From the NCBI GenBank assembly GCA_044223975.1, contig JBGALI010000012.1:38422-102421 (forward strand): a DNA stretch of 64,000 bases. Reading direction: 5' to 3'. Below the pieces are notes generated by a model. The model was not told where the DNA came from. It saw only the letters and a program-made list of their open reading frames with translations, and did no database searches. A program made the translations under genes and the position numbers. Position 1 is the first letter of the stretch; every line of letters begins with the position of its first letter. Shown here one piece after another: positions 22,015 to 30,985 of this stretch. The stretch comes from Phycisphaerales bacterium (GTDB lineage: Bacteria > Planctomycetota > Phycisphaerae > Phycisphaerales > UBA1924).

Positions 22015-23763
22015 TCAGGGAGCGCTACAACGCGCCAATCCCCCACATGGAAGTGGCGCGTCGATCCTCAATCCATCTCCATGCCGCGGCATCCGCGGCC
22101 GGTTGAATTGACTCTGGAATCGCTTTCTTCCGGAACGTGCCCGGACACCGATCTCCTCCCCACTTTGGGGTTGATTCCTAGACGCATCGAAGCCTGTACC
22201 ACCCTCACAGGGCGGCCGCACAGGCCTTACGACGACATGCGACCCAGAGGCGCCGATACGACATGAAATGGAGACTTCATTTGGCCGCCCAGCCTCAAGG
22301 TCAGGCCAGGCCCGCGCACCATCGCCGTCACGCGCCGCCCCTTTTGTGCTGGAGAGCGGCGTGAGCCGCGGACAGCCCCCGGCTACCCTCCGACTGTCAC
22401 ATTTTCGGAGGGATGCAGACGGCACGGTGACACCCTGAACCAACGCCAAGAATCGGTCATAGAGGCCCTGTAGCTCAGCGGTTAGAGCAGGCGACTCATA
22501 AGCTCGTCCGGGCATTCGGACGAGAGAAGCAAGTTTCGGCGAGGACTCGCCAAGTGTTGAAGTGGCATCACCTTGCGGCGCGTTCGCTTCCGCTCCCTGC
22601 TTCTCCCTGTACCTAGATGTAGACGAGTGCTGATGCGCTTTCTGATGCGCTTCGCCCCCGGGAGCGGCGGCGGCAGCCGCGGAAAGCATTCCGCCCTTGT
22701 TCATCGCGTAGTGTTTCTGCTGGACCGTGATGCTGTGGCCGATCGCGTCTGCCGCCTCGTGCTGCGGGAACGTGTCGAGCCAATCGGTTTCGATGCTCTG
22801 CCGCAGCGATTGGAACGTCTTTGGCCATCGCTTCACGCCCGCGCGGGCCGCGGCTTCCTGGATGGTCCGGGCCATGTTGTTTGTGCTGTGCGGGATAAGG
22901 CGAGACTGTTTCTCGGGCGCGGCGTGGTAGGCGGCCTGGAGCAAAGCGAGCAGCTTTGGGAACACTGGCACTGTGCGCGTCTGTCCGGTCTTGGGCGCGT
23001 AGACGGTGATCGCGTTGGTCTTCCAGTTCATTTTGTCCCATGTCAGGATGTGGGTCTCGCTGGGCACGCGAAGCCCGGCATGTCGCGCCAACCCGAAGAG
23101 AAGCCGCCAGTCCGGACCTGGGAGTTCGTCAAGCACTTTGTCAGCATCGGCGAGGGACACGTAGTGCTTAGCCCCAGCGAGCGCCGCGGAGTCCAGCTTA
23201 CGGAACGGGTCGGCAGGGAGGATTTCAAGCTCTTTGGTGGCGACGGCAAGTAGGGCCTTCGCATTGCGGGCGTGGAGACGGATCGTCACTTCCTTCAAGC
23301 CTTCGGCCTGTAGGCTCCGGCGCCACGCTGCCGCATCGGCCGGGGTGAGCGCGTCGATGGGGGGATTGGCCGTGAAATGGTCGCGCAATCGTCTTGCCGT
23401 CTGCCGAAGCAGGCGGCGGCTTCCGGGCTTCAAGTCGGCACGCTTGTTTCGCAGCGCGATGGCGAGAAACGTAACGAGCCGGGGCGACCCTCCCTGCCAG
23501 TGCTTCGGCGCCTTGGCCTTGGCGAGTCCGGCCTTCACCATGCGGGCGTGGATCGTCTCGTCAACGCCTGCAAGCCACGCCGCTGTGGCTGGGCTCAACG
23601 CGTAGTTCGCGGCCCTGGAGCCGAGAATGTCGTCGATTCGACGCTGGTATTCCTCCGCTGTGCGATACGTGACCTTCCCAAGCCGAAGCCACTGGCGGAC
23701 TCCGGCCGGGGAGGGAAAGAAGGCAATGGCGTAGGACTTGCCGATCTTGACGATGCTGCTCAT
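22015..23763 (-). CDS. Tyrosine-type site-specific integrase. The listed ORF runs on without a stop across attL, so the real C-terminus is uncertain.
   Basis: Catalytic-domain residues in order (ARHAGLRVPSE; HSTNNMART; IGHSITVQQKHYAMN with the Tyr). The ORF continues 3' of the HY motif through the reverse complement of the tRNA fragment (YESPALTAELQG) into the chromosomal flank. Confidence 0.8.
   Translation of the reverse strand: MSSIVKIGKSYAIAFFPSPAGVRQWLRLGKVTYRTAEEYQRRIDDILGSRAANYALSPATAAWLAGVDETIHARMVKAGLAKAKAPKHWQGGSPRLVTFLAIALRNKRADLKPGSRRLLRQTARRLRDHFTANPPIDALTPADAAAWRRSLQAEGLKEVTIRLHARNAKALLAVATKELEILPADPFRKLDSAALAGAKHYVSLADADKVLDELPGPDWRLLFGLARHAGLRVPSETHILTWDKMNWKTNAITVYAPKTGQTRTVPVFPKLLALLQAAYHAAPEKQSRLIPHSTNNMARTIQEAAARAGVKRWPKTFQSLRQSIETDWLDTFPQHEAADAIGHSITVQQKHYAMNKGGMLSAAAAAAPGGEAHQKAHQHSSTSRYREKQGAEANAPQGDATSTLGESSPKLASLVRMPGRAYESPALTAELQGLYDRFLALVQGVTVPSASLRKCDSRRVAGGCPRLTPLSSTKGAARDGDGARAWPDLEAGRPNEVSISCRIGASGSHVVVRPVRPPCEGGTGFDASRNQPQSGEEIGVRARSGRKRFQSQFNRPRMPRHGDGLRIDAPLPCGGLARCSAP
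22464..22501 (+). repeat. attL: 38-nt copy of the 5' half of tRNA-Met (through the anticodon loop)
   Basis: GGCCCTGTAGCTCAGCGGTTAGAGCAGGCGACTCATAA is identical to 30386..30423. The sequence diverges immediately afterwards and no T-arm follows. Confidence 0.9.
22642..22661 (+). repeat. TGATGCGC-TTTC-TGATGCGC motif (left end of island)
   Basis: Exact 20-mer, repeated at 30333..30352 in the same orientation. Its reverse complement occurs at 26209..26228 with a CTTC spacer. Confidence 0.85.
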
Positions 23764-23978
23764 GACTTCCCCTTCCGCTTGGCGATGGCCGCGGGAAACG
23801 TGATCTTCGCCCCGAGTGCCGCGAGGATGGCGTCGGCGCTTGTGAGGCTCAAATCCCCATCCCCCCGAAGGAACCGGGCCACGCTCGTTTCAATTACTCC
23901 GCTTCGCTTGGCAACGGCGTAGCCCGTGAGCCCCTGCCGTTTCACTTCGGCGCGAATTCGGTCGGCGAGTGACTTCAT
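23760..23978 (-). CDS. XRE-family (Cro/CI-type) HTH transcriptional regulator
   Basis: 72 aa: MKSLADRIRAEVKRQGLTGYAVAKRSGVIETSVARFLRGDGDLSLTSADAILAALG. Its stop overlaps the int start (ATGA). It is divergent from alpA. Confidence 0.75.
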   Translation of the reverse strand: MKSLADRIRAEVKRQGLTGYAVAKRSGVIETSVARFLRGDGDLSLTSADAILAALGAKITFPAAIAKRKGKS

Positions 23979-24001
23979 GGCATCACGATACAAGCAACTT
24001 G

Positions 24002-24019
24002 GCACGCTGTCAAGCGTGC
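24002..24019. promoter_or_regulatory. 7-bp inverted repeat GCACGCT-GTCA-AGCGTGC in the xre/alpA divergent intergenic region (candidate operator)
   Basis: Perfect palindrome about 25 nt upstream of the xre start codon (23978) and about 125 nt upstream of alpA. Confidence 0.45.
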
Positions 24020-24142
24020 TAGTACGGACTTCCTTGCCAATCTTCCGAACTCGGCTTGGCTTTGAGTGGACAGAGCGCAAAAGGGGTCGATATTGGATGT
24101 GGACGCTGCCCTTTGCGGCTTCCTTCACTTGGAGACTGAAAC

Positions 24143-24403
24143 ATGCGAGAAGGACACGGCAGCGGCGCGGACTTGGATTCTGGCCTTTGGCTTCCCGGCG
24201 AAGCAGCGCGGTTCTTGAAGATCAGCACGCGGACGCTGTTCGCGTTAGAGAGCAAAGGAAAGGTCCGTTCGGTGCGGTTCGGCCGCAGCGTCCGCTACCA
24301 CCCGGCCGATGTGCGGGACTTTGTGTCCCAGCATCGTCGGCACGAGCCCCGCGAGCCTGTTGCTGTCCACAACTGTGGAAGCGTGGCCAGCAACAAGGGC
24401 TAA
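24143..24403 (+). CDS. AlpA/excisionase-family (MerR-like HTH_17) DNA-binding protein
   Basis: LPGEAARFLKISTRTLFALESKGKVRSVRFGRSVRYHPADVRDFV, with a GGAGA RBS 8 nt upstream of the ATG. Confidence 0.75.
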   Translation: MREGHGSGADLDSGLWLPGEAARFLKISTRTLFALESKGKVRSVRFGRSVRYHPADVRDFVSQHRRHEPREPVAVHNCGSVASNKG

Positions 24404-24415
24404 AGCGCCACGGCT

Positions 24416-25816
24416 GTGGCAAGGCGAGGGATTCAATTGAGCGAAGACAAGGCGATGGGCGCGGGAGCGGCTTCGGTTGATCGTGCGGAGCAAATCGGGC
24501 GGCTCGCTGCCGTGCTGTTTGAGCCGATGGACTGGGTAGAAGTTCGCACAGTGTGGCCAGACCGCTCGGCCGGTTCGTCGCGGTGGTGCCGAGCAAACGA
24601 GATGGCATCGGCCGAGATGGTCGACTGGATGGGGGCCCAGAACGCGCGGGGACTTGGCATCTTCTACGGCGTGAACCCTCGCAAGCGAAGTGGCGGCAGC
24701 ACGGGCGCCGATGTGGCCCTGGCACGGTGCGTGTTCGCGGACTTTGACAACGGCACCGACGTAGCGACCGCCCGCGCCAAGATTCAGGACGTGGGACTTC
24801 CCGCCGCGACGGCAATCGTCGGGAGCGGGCACGGAGTTCATGTGTACTGGCGGCTAGACGAGCCGCTTGCAGACTTGGAGCGCGCCAAGGCCATCCAGAA
24901 GGGCATCGCCGCACACGCGGGGTCGGACGCGAAAGTTTTCGACGCGCCGCGAATCCTCCGCGTCCCCGGATTCCTGAACACCAAGCTCCCACACGCTCCC
25001 GTTGTGCTCATCGAATCTGACGCGGGCAGGACCTATCCACTCGCGGAGTTTCCGGGGCATGACAAGCCCTTCTCAAAGGGCGCGAGTGCGCTTGTACCAT
25101 CAGTGCCATCGGTAGCATCGGGTGGGGATGGGACTGATGGGACTGATGGGACTGATGGGACTGATGGGACTGATGGTACAAGCCCACCCCGCTCCCTGAT
25201 GCACGATCCCCGAGTCGTGGACGCCATCGACGCATGGGCCCTCACGGCGTTCGGTCAACGGCGTGCACGACTCTGGGGCTTAGTGACTTCTCTCAAGAAC
25301 ATCCCGGGCATGGAATCTTCGACTGACATGGACCTTCAGCCTGTCGTCATGGCGTGGCTGGGCAAGAACATGGCTTTCGTCGAGTCCACAGACCCCCGCG
25401 TGACAATCGCGGACCTGGAGGAATGCGTGTCGAGATATGACCCCGCCAAGTTCAACCAGTGCATCGGGAACGCGTACGCGTGGGCCCTGACGCAACCGCC
25501 GCACCCGCTGCTGGTCGACAACATCGTTTCCGAGCGCGCGACGCTGGCAAGGATGTTCGAATTTCTCCATCGCTGGCACTCAAAGGACGGAGTGTTCTGG
25601 GCGGGACAGTCGCGACTCGCCGAGCCGTTCCGCGTATCCCAGCAACTCATGGCACTTTGGATCAAAGGGCTAATTAGGCTGGGCATTGTGAAGGTCGAAG
25701 AGAAGGGAACTCGGCGCCGCGTGGTTGATGGGAAGGTCGTGCCCGCGCGGGCCACGACGTACCGATACCTTTTGCCGATCGACAACACGGCCGCGCCCGC
25801 CGCCGCGGCGGCCTAA
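24416..25816 (+). CDS. Primase-polymerase (archaeo-eukaryotic primase superfamily) replication protein with C-terminal accessory domain
   Basis: AEP motifs in order: DFD (VFADFDNGTD), SGHGVHVYW, RVPGFLNTK. An internal (DGT)5 linker is encoded by a 9-bp tandem repeat. The start is GTG 24416 or ATG 24455. Confidence 0.75.
   Translation: MARRGIQLSEDKAMGAGAASVDRAEQIGRLAAVLFEPMDWVEVRTVWPDRSAGSSRWCRANEMASAEMVDWMGAQNARGLGIFYGVNPRKRSGGSTGADVALARCVFADFDNGTDVATARAKIQDVGLPAATAIVGSGHGVHVYWRLDEPLADLERAKAIQKGIAAHAGSDAKVFDAPRILRVPGFLNTKLPHAPVVLIESDAGRTYPLAEFPGHDKPFSKGASALVPSVPSVASGGDGTDGTDGTDGTDGTDGTSPPRSLMHDPRVVDAIDAWALTAFGQRRARLWGLVTSLKNIPGMESSTDMDLQPVVMAWLGKNMAFVESTDPRVTIADLEECVSRYDPAKFNQCIGNAYAWALTQPPHPLLVDNIVSERATLARMFEFLHRWHSKDGVFWAGQSRLAEPFRVSQQLMALWIKGLIRLGIVKVEEKGTRRRVVDGKVVPARATTYRYLLPIDNTAAPAAAAA
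25127..25180 (+). repeat. 9-bp tandem repeat (GATGGGACT x5, plus one degenerate copy) inside the primase-polymerase gene
   Basis: Perfect head-to-tail copies at 25127, 25136, 25145, 25154 and 25163, with a sixth copy GATGGTACA. It stays in frame and encodes GDGTDGTDGTDGTDGTDGT. Confidence 0.9.
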
Positions 25817-26082
25817 GTGCCCACGCCATCGCATCAGGTGTCCCGGCGGACGAATCCCGCCACGCCATGCCGTGTATTGCCCTAACGAAACCACAGGAAG
25901 TCGCAAGAAGAAGGGGAACGATTCCTGGCTTGCCACGGCCCGGGCCGGAGCGATGGCGATGGCCATTGCCTCTAGGGGTCTGGCACTTGCGAGCAAGTCA
26001 AGCGGTCAGCACCGGTCCAGACAGACGCGTCGGTTGCTATGCAGGGTCTCTTCACCTTGCCCGCGGCGTTGCCGGTGCCACG

Positions 26083-26720
26083 CGTCCACAGTTGTGGATG
26101 TTTCGACGGTCGAAACATTCACCCGACGACCCATAGTCTCCTGTCACGCTCCCAGAATGCGGCCGCACGACCCCGTCAACGCTGTTTCCTCTCGTCCCCG
26201 AGTCGGCGGCGCATCACTTCGCGCATCACTCGCGGGAGCTTCCACCCCCATCCCGTGCGCCATTCCATGCGCCATGCGAGCGTAAACCACTGTGAATCAA
26301 GGCCCGACACTCGGCTAGGCTGGCCGCGTGCGTGCGCGTGGCGTTGCTGGGCGTTGGTGGGCGTGGTGGTGGCCGTGGCCACGGCGCCCGCGTTGCGTGG
26401 TCCTGGCCGTGCTGGCCGTGGCCGTGGCGCCGCGAGCCCGGGACGATGGTGGTGGAACACGCGCGCCGTCGCGTGCGTCGGCGCGGGCGCGGGCGACCCC
26501 CACGGGGGGAAGCGGCTCGGCGACCATCTATCAACGAGCCCTCGCAATTTTCTGCAACAAAAGCACAAGGGGTCGACTTGAAATCGACTATCGACGGGTA
26601 CGCTGCTTCCGCGCCGCACTCTCCGCAGTTGTGGACGCAATGTTTCGACCGTCGAAACACTGCCGCCCCTTTGCAATCGTCATCGTCCGTCGGCAATGTT
26701 TCGGCGTCGAAACATTGCCC
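26083..26720. promoter_or_regulatory. Putative replication origin / protein-binding region: three copies of a 20-28-bp palindrome (ATGTTTCGAC-N-GTCGAAACAT) plus short direct repeats and a G-rich tract
   Basis: Palindromes at 26098..26118, 26638..26663 and 26693..26720. The first two share the leader CAGTTGTGGA. GCGCATCA-CTTC-GCGCATCA lies at 26209..26228. No convincing ORF covers about 1 kb downstream of the primase-polymerase gene. Confidence 0.6.
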
Positions 26721-26923
26721 CCCACCCGCTCCCCTTGCCTTGGCCGCCGGTCGTCGCTTCGCCTCGAAGATCGGCGGCCTTGCTCGTTCCTTTCCGCTGC
26801 GCGACTTGGCCCTAAGCGGGCGCCGCGTGGCGTCGTCTTCGTCGCTTCCGCGCCAGCGTGCTGCCCTTGCTGGCGCGGAAGTTTTTCCCCTTTCACGTCG
26901 GCATCGGCCGACACGGAGTCACA

Positions 26924-27112
26924 ATGTCCGAGACGAATACCGCAAAGCCGTTCACGTCCGCCGCGGAGCGCGATGCCGCGTTCAGAAGCCCAAAGTACGC
27001 GCCTGAGCGGCCCAACGGATCGGGTCCCAATCCGCAGCACGACGCTGCGTATCGGGCCGAAGTCCTGGCACGCATGGCCGCCACGGAAGCCACCGGGAGG
27101 AAGCTCTCTTGA
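26924..27112 (+). CDS. Hypothetical protein (62 aa)
   Basis: ATG behind a GGAG RBS. Its stop overlaps the TTG start of the next ORF (TTGA). Confidence 0.4.
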   Translation: MSETNTAKPFTSAAERDAAFRSPKYAPERPNGSGPNPQHDAAYRAEVLARMAATEATGRKLS

Positions 27113-27636
27113 ACGAACCCACCACCACCACCACCACCTCCCCCGTTTCCCCTGGAGACCTTGCAATCGCTCTCCGGGATCGCCATCGCTCGGGCCTGGT
27201 CGAAGCACTCAAGACCTACAGGGCCGCTGCCGCCGCGGGCGACGTTACTGCGATGGCCAAGTCCGCGGACCAACTCGGACTGACTGACGATGAGATCGTG
27301 AGCGACGCCACGGCGTTGGCGACGGTGTCTGAACTTGACGCATCCATTGCGGGCTTTGCCACCGACTTGGCAAATCTGCGCGACGCTGCCGACATGGACC
27401 GTGAAGACGCTGCTTTGGCGGAGCAGATGGCCATCGCCACCCGCCCGATGGCAGAGAAGCGCGCGGCGATTGCGACGGAGCGGGCCAAGATCGCCAAGTT
27501 GAAGGAAGAGACGAACGGGCTTGAAGAGGCCCTGCGGAGCGCCCGCCGCGGTTCACCCCGACTCTTCGAACCCGACATCACACTCGCCGCGGCCCGCAGC
27601 ACGCCCCTCGGTGCGGCCTACTTCGAACGGAGCTGA
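27109..27636 (+). CDS. Hypothetical protein (175 aa, poly-Thr N-terminus, predicted helical/coiled-coil)
   Basis: TTG start behind a GGGAGGAAG RBS, with coherent non-repetitive sequence after TTTTTT. It is translationally coupled to the upstream ORF. Confidence 0.5.
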   Translation: MNEPTTTTTTSPVSPGDLAIALRDRHRSGLVEALKTYRAAAAAGDVTAMAKSADQLGLTDDEIVSDATALATVSELDASIAGFATDLANLRDAADMDREDAALAEQMAIATRPMAEKRAAIATERAKIAKLKEETNGLEEALRSARRGSPRLFEPDITLAAARSTPLGAAYFERS

Positions 27637-27643
27637 AATCTAC

Positions 27644-28000
27644 ATGACCAAGAACACCAAGCCCCCGCCCACCCAACGCGCGCGGATGCTCGAACTTTTC
27701 AACCGTCTGGTTGACCTACTCCTGACGCTGCTTCGCCGCGGCCGTCCGATGGTCGGCCCCGACGGCGCGATCATGGTCGACGCCAACGGTAAGGCGATTT
27801 ACAAGGACATCGGCGCGGCTGATATGGCCGTGTGCGTGTCGCTGCTTCGCCTGGCTGGCCTTCGGGCCACGCTCAATGCGCCGCAGACAGAGCTTGCCGC
27901 GATGATGGAACGCGCCAGAGCGGCCGGGTGGCGCTCGCCCGAGTCGGTGCCCCCGGCCGCGGCGGACGGCGCCGGGGAGGACGACGATGCCGAGGACTGA
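27644..28000 (+). CDS. Hypothetical protein (118 aa)
   Basis: ATG at 27644. The stop overlaps the start of the next gene. Confidence 0.45.
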   Translation: MTKNTKPPPTQRARMLELFNRLVDLLLTLLRRGRPMVGPDGAIMVDANGKAIYKDIGAADMAVCVSLLRLAGLRATLNAPQTELAAMMERARAAGWRSPESVPPAAADGAGEDDDAED

Positions 28001-28385
28001 CCTTCCGCGCGATCATCGCAAGCCGATCCCTCCCGAAAATCGGCTCCTGCTCGATGCCGACCACGTCGCACGCTTGCTCTCTGTCAGTCGCTACACCATC
28101 TTGGCGTGGCGGAAGCAAGGACTCATGCCCCAGCCCGTCGAGTTCTCCGCTGGCACCGTTTTGTGGAGAGTCCGCGAGATCGAGGCTTGGGTGGTGGCCT
28201 CGTGCCCCGCCATGGCCGATTGGACCTGGCGTCCCACGGTTTCGGCGCGACTTGACGCCTACATCCGTTGTCAGTCCCGGGAGATCAAGGACATGCAAGA
28301 ATCCCTGGACGCGGCACTCCGCGCGAAGGCCGCAGGCGCGACGACGATCCCGGTCTCGCTCGCTCCCGACTCGCCCACTCTGTAA
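27987..28385 (+). CDS. Second AlpA/excisionase-family HTH protein
   Basis: DADHVARLLSVSRYTILAWRKQGLMPQPVEFSAGTVLWRVREIEAWV matches the AlpA-type winged-helix pattern. Confidence 0.65.
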   Translation: MPRTDLPRDHRKPIPPENRLLLDADHVARLLSVSRYTILAWRKQGLMPQPVEFSAGTVLWRVREIEAWVVASCPAMADWTWRPTVSARLDAYIRCQSREIKDMQESLDAALRAKAAGATTIPVSLAPDSPTL

Positions 28386-28437
28386 TTGCCGCGGCGGCCT
28401 GTTCGCCTACTGGCCTTCTACATCGCCGCGTTCGCAT

Positions 28438-28475
28438 TTGCCCCGCCCTGGCGAAAGCCGGGGGCGGGGTTTTTC
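28438..28475 (+). terminator. Rho-independent terminator
   Basis: GCCCCGCCC - loop - GGGGCGGGG followed by TTTTT, immediately after the second alpA-like gene. Confidence 0.7.
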
Positions 28476-28560
28476 GGTTGTGTCCCTTGGTGTCCGCATA
28501 TTGCTGGTTGTTCGGACTTGTGATCCGTGGTAGCCTGCGCCCTTTGGGGGGGCACGCAAA

Positions 28561-28794
28561 ATGAACGCGAAGAACGTCGGAGCCTACTTGGCCGTGGGTG
28601 GCGGCGCGCTCTTGTACCTTGCTTTCGTCGGCTCGCTCGTGACGGGCTGTGGCTGGGTGCTGTTCTACTCCGAATGGCACTGGTTCGCCAAGGTGATGGC
28701 CGCGATCATCCTGTTGCCGTTCCTGCCCCACGCGATTGGCTTGCTGGTGACCCTCGTTACGCTGGCAGGCAGCATCGGAAAGCGACCGGGCTAG
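28561..28794 (+). CDS. Small membrane protein (77 aa, two predicted TM helices)
   Basis: Hydrophobic segments LAVGGGALLYLAFVGSLV and VMAAIILLPFLPHAIGLLVTLVTLA. Confidence 0.45.
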   Translation: MNAKNVGAYLAVGGGALLYLAFVGSLVTGCGWVLFYSEWHWFAKVMAAIILLPFLPHAIGLLVTLVTLAGSIGKRPG

Positions 28795-29348
28795 TGCGGG
28801 CCCGCGTGGTCATTGGGCGCCGCCGTCAACCGTTCCACCAAAGATTTCGGCTCGGGCGCTGGATCGCAATACTCCACACCCCAAGTAGCGATGGTCAAAT
28901 CTTTGCCGCGGTAGACCAGAATCTCGCGCTTCCGGCTGAAAACCCACAGGCTCACGGCGCCGCCCTGGCGAAGCAGCTGACTCATGAACGCCGATCCCTG
29001 AGCGCTAAGCACAAACTCGGCGCAATCGTTCGTCTCAATGGCGTCCGCGCGCCCGTGGATGTGCATCCCATACTGTTGAACGACGCCATTCGTTGACACC
29101 CCGCGCATCACGGCACGAGGTTCTGGAATCGGGTTGTTGCCCGTGTTGGTGGCAATCGCGCGAATTGTCCGTTCGCCACCTTCTTCGTGCATGGCAATTT
29201 GAACGCTGACGCGGAGCCGCTTCGCCTCTTGTTCGCGTTGTTTGTCCCGCCGCTCAATGCCAAATTCGATGGCCCGCAACACGGCGAGACTTCCAGAAAT
29301 GACCGTACCCGTCAAGCCGAGATAGAAGGCGGCATCATCCATGGGCAA
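28791..29348 (-). CDS. Hypothetical protein with an N-terminal TM helix (185 aa); candidate island cargo
   Basis: N-terminus AAFYLGLTGTVISGSLAVLRAI. The remainder is soluble and I recognise no family. Confidence 0.45.
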   Translation of the reverse strand: MPMDDAAFYLGLTGTVISGSLAVLRAIEFGIERRDKQREQEAKRLRVSVQIAMHEEGGERTIRAIATNTGNNPIPEPRAVMRGVSTNGVVQQYGMHIHGRADAIETNDCAEFVLSAQGSAFMSQLLRQGGAVSLWVFSRKREILVYRGKDLTIATWGVEYCDPAPEPKSLVERLTAAPNDHAGPH

Positions 29349-29387
29349 TGCTAGTTGCTCTGGAATCGCTGCGGCAGAGCGTTCGGT

Positions 29388-29960
29388 TCACTCCTGCCGC
29401 ACTCGTGCCCCACCCTGCCGCCCCCATGCCACCCTAAGCACTTGCACCGCCTGAACCACCTGCCGTGCCGTGCAACCGAGCGAAGCCGCTGCGTGGGCTG
29501 TACCGCCTGTGCGTACCACCATCGCCACACGCTCGGCCGTGGTCTCGCTGGCAATGCCCAGCACACTCGCCACGCTCGCGCTCGTGTCCCTTGCCCGCTC
29601 GTGCGGCTCGCGCTGGCCCAGTTGCTCGGGCGGTTCGCGGTGCTGGCTCCGGCGCCGACTCGCGCCACGCTCGCGGTGCCAGTTGTCCAGCACGCGGCGC
29701 CGCGCGTTGCGAGCCACGCACCTGGCGAAGTCGTCCCCGTCGAATCGGTCGGCGATGGCATTGCACACGAGCCACGCCTCGCCGAAGTGCTCGGCCGCGG
29801 CCGTGCCCGTGGCCTTGCCGACTTGCCGCGCTATCGACTCGGCCAGCGCGAGCACTTCGGCCCGCGTGACTTGGCCCGTGGCCATGGTCTCTCCCCTTGC
29901 CCCTGAATGGCCCGTGGCACGCTCTCGCACGCCCGGGCCGTTGGATGGTCGGTCAATCAC
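29388..29960 (-). CDS. Sigma-70 family (ECF-like) sigma factor
   Basis: Region-2-like DFARCVARNARRRVLDNWHRE (compare F..W...IARN...D..RR) and region-4-like AERVAMVVRTGGTAHAAASLGCTARQVVQAV. The start is probably ATG near 29884; the frame is ambiguous by 1 nt in my reading. Confidence 0.5.
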   Translation of the reverse strand: MIDRPSNGPGVRERATGHSGARGETMATGQVTRAEVLALAESIARQVGKATGTAAAEHFGEAWLVCNAIADRFDGDDFARCVARNARRRVLDNWHRERGASRRRSQHREPPEQLGQREPHERARDTSASVASVLGIASETTAERVAMVVRTGGTAHAAASLGCTARQVVQAVQVLRVAWGRQGGARVRQE

Positions 29961-30163
29961 GCGAAGGCAAGGCGGCCCCCTGGCGTGACACGGGCGCGGT
30001 ACGTCGCTACGACGGCGTCGCGCTCGCGGAGCGTGACGGTCCGGCCGTCGATGTTGACGACGAAGAACCCCCCTTGCCCGTGATGAGCGACGGCAGCGTT
30101 AGCGATGGTGGAATCGCGGAACGATGCGAGGGCGCGGCGCGTGGTGGACTTGGACATGTTCAA
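29957..30163 (-). CDS. Hypothetical small protein (68 aa), first gene of the minus-strand cargo operon
   Basis: ATG start. Its stop overlaps the sigma-factor start. Confidence 0.35.
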   Translation of the reverse strand: MNMSKSTTRRALASFRDSTIANAAVAHHGQGGFFVVNIDGRTVTLRERDAVVATYRARVTPGGRLAFA

Positions 30164-30332
30164 AGCCTTTCTGGTCCGGCGAGTGTGAGTGATGCCGAGC
30201 CCGTGCCGGTGCCGGGTCGGCGGACGGTCATTGAGCAGCGATGGCGAGTATCCGGGCGCGGGTCTCCGGGGGGAGGCTCGGCCATGCCTCGGCTACCCTT
30301 CGGAGTTCAGGGTCTTGGAGTGCCGTGAGAAG

Positions 30333-30352
30333 TGATGCGCTTTCTGATGCGC
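30333..30352 (+). repeat. TGATGCGC-TTTC-TGATGCGC motif (right end of island, 33 nt from the tRNA junction)
   Basis: Identical to 22642..22661. Confidence 0.85.
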
Positions 30353-30385
30353 CTTCCCGCGACAATCCGAGAAACTGGGCAAAAA

Positions 30386-30458
30386 GGCCCTGTAGCTCAG
30401 CGGTTAGAGCAGGCGACTCATAATCGCTTGGTCCCGGGTTCGAATCCCGGCGGGGCCA
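30386..30458 (+). tRNA. tRNA-Met (anticodon CAT; elongator-type or tRNA-Ile2/lysidine not distinguishable)
   Basis: GGCCCTG/TA/GCTC-AGCGGTTA-GAGC/A/GGCGA-CTCATAA-TCGCT/TGGTC/CCGGG-TTCGAAT-CCCGG/CGGGGCC/A. Confidence 0.9.
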
Positions 30459-30985
30459 TTCGGCACAGAAGCGCACCGACGCGCAAGCCCTAGCACGGGC
30501 GACGGTTGCGGGATCGGGCCAAATCCGACCGAATGCGCCCGACCAAGCGATTGCAGCGCCGTGCGCTATCGTGCGCGGCGGTGCTGCAGCGCAATTTGCA
30601 GCGTGCTGCTGTCGCAGCGTTTGCGACAGCAGTCAAGTCCGCACGGCGCGTGGTGACGGCAGGCGTTCGGCAACGCACGCCTGTTGAACTCATTCCGAAC
30701 GGCTCGCACGTATACAATGTCGCGTTCGCACAGTTCGGGAGAAGAGCGATGCTCAATATCCTGACTCTTGAACTCCCTTGTCCGGTCGGCTCGTCCTTGC
30801 CCAAGCACAAGGCCGAGGGGCAGCCGCTCCCGCCGCCCTAGCGGAACCTCCCGCAACTGCAGACCTGACGCGGCCAGAATCCACATTCTGAGTACCCAAC
30901 GGTGACCTCGCAGGAGTTCACGCGCGCGGACTGTCCCCACGGAGATGCCGCGCGCTCGCATACCCACCGTGCGCCGAGACATTCC

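Follow-up and report, generated by a model that had tools for sequence, protein, structure and literature searches.

Near each end of a 7.9-kb island (22502-30423) in a 64,000-nt stretch of a Phycisphaerales bacterial genome (contig JBGALI010000012.1 of assembly GCA_044223975.1; hereafter the window), a 20-nt sequence made of two tandem 8-nt units was observed in the same orientation. The island carries the gene (int) for a tyrosine integrase (Int) and is bounded by a direct repeat of part of a tRNA-Met gene, and the two end copies are probably the P (int-distal) and P' (int-proximal) arm-type sites of Int, which would then be a heterobivalent integrase. This reading draws on the sites and their statistics, an architecture conserved in related islands, conservation of the DNA itself and an apparent extra N-terminal domain in the integrase, and from these we infer that Int is the reader of the pairs and that an Int tetramer bridges the arms to the core.

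The exact 20-mer TGATGCGCTTTCTGATGCGC was present on the + strand at 22631-22650 and 30333-30352, and a third pair, at 26209-26228, read GCGCATCA-CTTC-GCGCATCA on the + strand, that is, the reverse-complement unit with a different spacer (GCGCAGCA being the T-to-G version of GCGCATCA). An earlier sequence-only reading had described these three copies, and its right copy, the common orientation of the end copies and the reverse complement with the CTTC spacer were all found as described, the right copy ending 33 nt before the tRNA 5' end; its left copy, given as 22642-22661 and 140 nt inside the left junction, had been placed 11 nt too high, and the pair starts 130 nt inside. Over the 64 kb, three pairs at 12-nt spacing were observed versus 0.14 expected, with none of 100 shuffles reaching three, whereas the lone 8-mer was not enriched (10 observed versus 6.1 expected), so the signal lies in the pairing. 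Zero pairs were located in the window outside the island. The 20 nt were the same at both island ends and the flanking bases had diverged, which argues against a recent long duplication and favours selection on the site. When compared with metagenome contigs, the exact 20-mer gave 20 single unrelated matches, none beside a related integrase, and no close sister island was found.

The P' pair (22631..22650, - strand) reads GCGCATCAG-AAA-GCGCATCAG in the int sense and lies within the int 3' coding tail, where it encodes the peptide AHQKAHQ, 56 nt past the Tyr352 codon and 130 nt from the att repeat (129 nt between the junction and the pair). The P pair (30333..30352, - strand), the same 20-mer in the same orientation, is non-coding and ends 33 nt ahead of the 5' end of tRNA-Met and 64 nt ahead of its anticodon loop. 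Repeats unlike the core on both sides within about 150 bp are a feature of arm sites, and the distances here are 64 and 129 nt from the overlap. Agreement between arm motif and core (GCGACTCA and GCGCATCA) was 6 of 8 positions, which is chance level by our own estimate, not a tool result.

An intact tRNA-Met(CAT) gene was identified at 30386-30458 by ARAGORN and Rfam, and a search of the island with Rfam returned tRNA only. The att direct repeat, 22463-22501 and 30385-30423, is exact over 39 nt and corresponds to tRNA-Met nt 1-38 plus one upstream nt, the identity ending at the end of the anticodon loop. The attL core (22463..22501, + strand) is a displaced copy of this 5' half through the anticodon loop CTCATAA, and the attR core (30385..30423, + strand) is the same 39 nt within the intact gene; because the repeat is the tRNA 5' half, the working tRNA-Met receives its 5' half and upstream region from the island. 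A hairpin with an 8-bp stem, CTCGTCCG-ggcatt-CGGACGAG, was found on the island side at 22503-22524, beginning 2 nt past the attL junction. The native sequence upstream of the displaced tRNA fragment (22357-22392) and a stretch of the P arm (30267-30302) shared 75% identity over 36 nt with a CGGCTACCCTYCG core, at an offset of 12 nt relative to the att repeat, and the upstream region that the island provides to the tRNA may derive from a host tRNA locus.

Conservation of the pairs in related loci

With a 12-sequence integrase alignment, 80 related loci were collected from species-representative genomes, all of them metagenome-assembled and nearly all labelled Planctomycetota, mostly Phycisphaerae. 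A near pair, defined as a run of at least 7 nt with a 12-nt period located 15-160 nt after the catalytic Tyr codon, was present in 66 of the 77 testable loci, whose integrases were 31-42% identical, versus 4.2% of control windows from the same loci; other periods (9, 11, 13, 14 and 15) were seen in 0 to 2 of the 77. The median offset of the near pair from the Tyr codon was 57 nt, and in relatives it lay about 130-150 nt ahead of an antisense tRNA or tmRNA gene. Units across the family fit GCGCNGCAG-AAW, the full element being GCGCNGCAG-AAW-GCGCNGCAG, with lineage variants GCGCAGCAG, GCGCTGCAG, GCGGCGCAG, CGGTGCAG and GTGACGCA, as well as GCGCAGCG in a large tmRNA-targeting clade. The window unit GCGCATCAG and that of the closest relative, L001 (GCGCAGCAG), are one base apart. 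By this comparison, the element is family-wide and the window motif is one of its lineage variants, and the earlier description of it as island-specific held for the T-containing variant alone and not for the motif class.

The far end was in hand for 10 islands (window, L001, L007, L021, L024, L044, L045, L048, L058 and L074), and in all 10 the island's own variant was found again, oriented like the near pair and at 30-84 nt inside the far att repeat, with no such pair on the outer side of that repeat. Since the far pair sits on the island side of the att repeat, it is not a remnant of an int tail. Remnants of int 3' tails were observed in register past the far att repeat in L044, L048 and L024, pointing to tandem islands at the same tmRNA or tRNA site. 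The sequence-only reading had proposed arm-type integrase sites on both att-proximal arms and had named conservation in related islands as a check; both the two-pair layout (10/10) and the near pair (66/77) bear this conservation out and, together with the apparent extra N-terminal domain of Int, favour the proposal.

As the near pair lies in the int ORF (open reading frame), what is conserved might be a repeated peptide (AHQK-AHQH in the window) in the C-terminal tail of the integrase, or the pair might have arisen by chance or recent duplication and have no function at the DNA level. The homologue alignment did show a 4-residue periodic peptide at one position of the C-terminal tail, AHQK/AHQH in the window and AQRQ/AQRK, ALHQ/ALQH or SAAE/SAAE elsewhere. 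However, the repeat in the 45 consensus-matching loci was read in int frame 0 in 27, frame 1 in 17 and frame 2 in 1, for example as GCG CAG CAG AAA (AQQK) in L001 and GAA AGC GCA GCA (ESAA) in L011; in L042, L015 and L017 the ORF ends before the repeat, and in L041, L046, L050, L066 and L069 a stop codon falls within the second unit. The same DNA in three frames or past a stop indicates that the DNA is conserved and that the periodic peptide is a by-product. The frame analysis thus effectively refutes the peptide repeat, and with a non-coding far pair, an exact 20-mer in diverged flanks and a chance expectation of 0.14, the probability left to this explanation as a whole is negligible.

A separate repeat with a 10-nt phase was located between the P' pair and the core at 22593..22609 (- strand), reading CAGGGAG-AAG-CAGGGAG in the int sense and occurring nowhere else in the 64 kb. 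Such repeats were present in 16 of 77 loci versus 0 to 2 for neighbouring periods, only on the int-proximal arm and at +67 to +110 after the Tyr codon, with the sequence CGGAAAC-GAG-CGGAAAC in the tmRNA clade and CTCGCA or TCGCAA in others. This repeat is a candidate site for an accessory protein, either a recombination directionality factor (RDF) or a bending protein, and its position is the more typical seat of directionality.

The integrase and the proposed attP

The integrase ORF (22015..23763, - strand) encodes 582 aa, with the catalytic Tyr352 codon at 22708-22710. Its catalytic domain matched PF00589 (E 3e-7), and R232, K258, R321, H343 and Y352 were invariant or nearly so in the homologue alignment. 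The box II HxxR motif of the family starts with Gln, not His (QxLR; Q318 in the window, at about 22810-22812). XerA, Tn1549 Int and lambda Int were matched by Foldseek at E 1e-10 to 1e-8, and the full-length protein aligned to lambda Int (1z1b) over 374 columns. No close relative was found in the protein search, the next-best matches being 44-49% identical. Residues 1-52 (23608-23763, - strand) appear to form a beta3-alpha domain of three strands and a helix that is putatively arm-binding. Foldseek with this isolated N-domain gave no significant match, a profile search of solved structures gave matches limited to the core-binding and catalytic parts, and the N-domain had neither a Pfam Arm-DNA-bind match nor detectable sequence homology to the N-domain of lambda Int.

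No stop codon occurs in the int ORF before attL, so that it continues across the P' arm, then across the antisense tRNA fragment (ESPALTAELQGL), and extends to 22015. In the excised circle the int frame would enter the P arm and stop at 30228 (30228-30476, - strand); since the frame crosses att, int would have one C-terminus and 3' end in the integrated island and another after excision. The int ORFs of many relatives likewise enter the antisense tRNA or tmRNA (RGESNPRP).

In lambda-type intasomes, protomers hold an arm unit by the N-domain and a core half-site by the other domains. On this model, the attP of the excised island would span about 240 bp in the order pair, 64 nt, 7-nt anticodon-loop overlap, 129 nt and pair, with the P' pair falling within the int 3' coding tail. 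One N-terminal beta-sheet domain of Int would bind each 12-nt unit (AAAGCGCATCAG), and the core-binding and catalytic domains would hold the tRNA-Met anticodon stem-loop. Two adjacent units per arm would make four arm sites, matching the four protomers of a tetramer by which the arms would be bridged to the core. A protein for bending or directionality, with an HTH_17 protein of the island as a candidate, would probably sit on the 10-nt-phased repeat.

The internal pair and rival explanations

The internal orphan pair (26209..26228, + strand), GCGCATCACT-tc-GCGCATCACT, is inverted relative to the arm pairs and lies in a 1.1-kb region without coding signal (25817-26923), between a RepB-primase-like gene (24416-25816) and the next operon. 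Both of its units carry a CACT extension, as does the second unit of the P-arm pair, and one of two composite palindromes lies about 90 nt away. A second 12-nt-phased pair, TGCGCCAT-tcca-TGCGCCAT at 26256-26275 (+ strand), with GCGCCAT at 26257 and 26269, is in register with it (offset 48 = 4 x 12), and CCCCCAT at 26245 is also in phase; these units and the internal pair may be degenerate units of one array. About 66 relatives had a near pair that could be scored; allowing up to one mismatch and leaving the arm copies aside, none of them had an internal pair. Thus, the copy that had been reported for the ori-like region is present in the window but is not a family feature, and because it is unique to the window island, arm-site logic alone does not explain it. 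It does not look like the fossil arm of another island, since no arm-like or tRNA-like similarity was found when the 1.3-kb intergenic region was compared with all loci by blastn. The internal pair may serve Int-N as an operator within an ori or promoter region; alternatively, it may be a clue that a winged helix-turn-helix (wHTH) regulator is the true reader.

The sequence-only reading had also offered a dimeric regulator (AlpA, XRE or a sigma factor) as the protein that recognises the motif. In a survey of the family, XRE homologues were detected in 5 loci, a sigma-like protein in none and a RepB-primase in 1 of the 80 relatives, and HTH_17-like ORFs were found in 58 of 81 loci (most of the others being truncated contigs) and in 9 of 10 complete islands. 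Since the island's remaining DNA-binding proteins are not conserved across the family, Int and HTH_17 proteins are the only family-wide candidates; XRE and sigma drop out as family-wide readers, whereas AlpA/HTH_17 stays as a rival. Strand beta2 of Int, YAIAFF in the window, was RAIDF in 8 loci with GCGCAGCAG and RAIQF or RAVQF in 7 loci with GCGCTGCAG. Within the tmRNA clade, SRFITF tracked GCGCAGCG and RRRIQF or RRIIQF tracked GCGGCGCAG or CGGTGCAG, while the helix and wing of HTH_17 (VTxRTVWxLV...PAVRFGRSVRID) were nearly invariant across islands with these three variants. Where the motif differed within this clade, Int N-domains were 47-57% identical, HTH_17 proteins 76-79% and the rest of Int 68-80%. 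The motif variant did not follow the HTH_17 recognition helix in the tmRNA clade, a weak test given variants only a few bases apart. As a predictor of motif class, pairwise identity gave areas under the curve of 0.77 for Int-N, 0.75 for HTH_17 and 0.70 for the Int catalytic domain, values that are weakly discriminating and partly spoiled by wrong starts. The co-variation of beta2 and motif is suggestive and does not amount to independent evidence, because the beta2 D and Q groups are roughly separate clades.

Several points weigh against Int as the reader. The beta2 co-variation may reflect one or a few ancestral switches, and its power is limited because the core GCGCAG is highly conserved across integrases 30-40% identical and the variants are 1-3 bases apart. 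Nearly every complete island has an HTH_17 gene. Head-to-tail binding to direct repeats spaced by about one turn is possible for wHTH proteins of this type (PMC11963761), and some of them act at both att sites and promoters, by which the third copy would be naturally explained. The pairs could accordingly be operators of one of the two HTH_17 proteins encoded by the island, with two monomers bound head-to-tail, serving as directionality factor at the arms and as regulator of transcription or replication internally. The parts of PMC11963761 that describe BldC, which binds 9-bp direct repeats head-to-tail, and RdfS, which binds both attP and a promoter, provide parallels for this. However, the pairs are outermost on both arms and not restricted to one core-adjacent arm, and it is the Int N-domain that varies with the motif in the tmRNA clade. 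L024 has both pairs and no detectable HTH_17 gene, the near pair is tied to int whereas the position of the HTH_17 gene ranges from -1.1 to -4.9 kb, and the 10-nt-phased repeat, core-proximal and on one arm, is a more typical RDF seat. Reading by HTH_17 is therefore unlikely, although it retains more than a token share of probability, and arm-type sites read by Int are preferred.

Two further explanations involve functions other than recombination. If the motif were read by a factor of the host, or were part of a promoter or other regulatory element of the tRNA, the position of the P pair (34-53 nt upstream of tRNA-Met), the need for the island to supply a promoter for the tRNA-Met whose 5' half and upstream region it carries, and the conservation of the core GCGCAG across many hosts would fit. 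This is very unlikely, as the gap between pair and att is not fixed (30 to 84 nt), the P arm of most relatives adjoins a tRNA or tmRNA 3' fragment that needs no promoter, variants differ between islands of closely related hosts, and the other copy lies within int; no sigma-70-like promoter was found at either island end or in the ori-like region, in a scan that is uninformative for this phylum. Similarly, the internal copy in the non-coding region after the primase-like gene, its 12-nt-phased array and the nearby palindromes recall a replication iteron or ori element of a RepB-primase-like replicon, with the end copies incidental. Yet the motif is present in 66 of 77 loci versus a RepB-primase homologue in one relative, the relatives carry unrelated replication genes, none has an internal copy, and in all 10 islands with the far end in hand the end copies keep to the att sites, so that an iteron is most improbable.

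For the arm-site reading, the internal pair is best seen, speculatively, as an extra Int-N operator gained by the window island, for example one coupling Int occupancy to the ori-like or promoter region. A wider role in which the Int N-domain doubles as a regulator, binding the orphan pair and the phased units so that Int occupancy would switch replication or expression of the excised element, is doubtful. Int might under that reading also gate its own 3' end by state, since the int coding tail contains the P' pair and att is crossed by both the ORF and the transcript of int.

Other features of the island include a small XRE gene that overlaps the integrase start, the HTH_17 (excisionase/MerR-like) gene a (24143..24403, + strand), the HTH_17/AlpA-like gene b (27987..28385, + strand), both identified by HTH_17 matches, and several hypothetical genes. 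Two families of island-specific palindromes were found, TCCACARYTGTGGA in three copies (24366-24379, 26085-26098 and 26622-26635) and TGTTTCGACGGTCGAAACA in two copies together with the 1-nt-shorter GGCAATGTTTCGGCGTCGAAACATTGCC (26099-26117, 26641-26659 and 26694-26721); short blastn matches to TGTTTCGACGGTCGAAACA occurred in L006 and L065. Both families, mostly in the ori-like region, resemble the operators of a dimeric regulator. In the RepB-primase-like gene, about 6 tandem copies of a 9-nt repeat (GATGGGACT, 25118-25179) encode a (DGT)n linker.

Comparison with known systems

To our knowledge, there is almost no mobile-element genetics for Planctomycetota, and integration tools are scarce. 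With the arrangement described here, attP would be defined at the sequence level, as a core and two tandem arm pairs over about 240 bp, for a large tRNA/tmRNA-targeting integrase family of this phylum. The 12-mer GCGCNGCAG-AAW, about 55 nt past the catalytic Tyr codon, may serve as a practical marker for both island ends, and the natural variation by one base, matched by variation in Int beta2 (D with A, Q with T), would lend itself directly to specificity swaps. The kind of system, heterobivalent-integrase arm sites, is already known, and the integrase family is uncharacterised.

In lambda attP, the arm-type sites P1, P2 and P'1 to P'3 are read by the Int N-terminal domain (1z1b, 1z1g). The window system resembles it in its apparently three-domain integrase, with a putative N-terminal three-strand sheet and helix, in the presence of short non-core repeats on both arms, in the spacing of neighbouring direct repeats by about one turn and in a predicted attP of about 240 bp. 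It differs in having exactly two units per arm at a 12-nt period, a P' pair inside the int coding tail and a tRNA or tmRNA target.

A second parallel is ICEMlSymR7A, in which IntS has five P/arm-type motifs (TGKTGGTATC) in a 283-bp attP and RdfS, a wHTH protein, binds attP and a promoter (PMC11963761). Both elements integrate at a tRNA gene and combine a tyrosine integrase and a wHTH protein, the RDF in ICEMlSymR7A, with repeated arm motifs, which in ICEMlSymR7A are needed for integration, and proteins bound to att there also regulate transcription; the integrase family and motif are different, and five dispersed sites are found there versus two tandem pairs in the window (PMC11963761). For BldC/Xis-type wHTH proteins, the part of PMC11963761 that cites Schumacher et al. 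2018 describes binding to direct repeats head-to-tail. Direct repeats about one turn apart and HTH_17/MerR-like proteins encoded by the window island match that description, whereas the motif variants of the tmRNA clade, which did not follow the HTH_17 helix there, and the outermost position of the sites on both arms do not.

With respect to the target, integration that replaces the 5' part of a tRNA is considerably less frequent than replacement of the 3' part, according to the passage in PMC6563490 that cites Zhao and Williams 2002. The window island, whose repeat is the tRNA-Met 5' half, resembles the 5'-distal recombining elements of that passage in island layout and not in motif. L001 has the same tRNA 5'-half layout, and L074, which duplicates 53 upstream nt and tRNA nt 1-60, is also of the 5' type, whereas most members of the integrase family use the 3' end of a tRNA or tmRNA. 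Finally, the arm-type sites of intS in the KplE1 prophage double as operators (PMC2951348). Although those operators are att arm sites by the int promoter and the extra pair of the window lies 3.5-4 kb from either att end, KplE1 is a precedent for an arm-site-bound integrase acting as a transcriptional regulator, the role proposed for the orphan pair.

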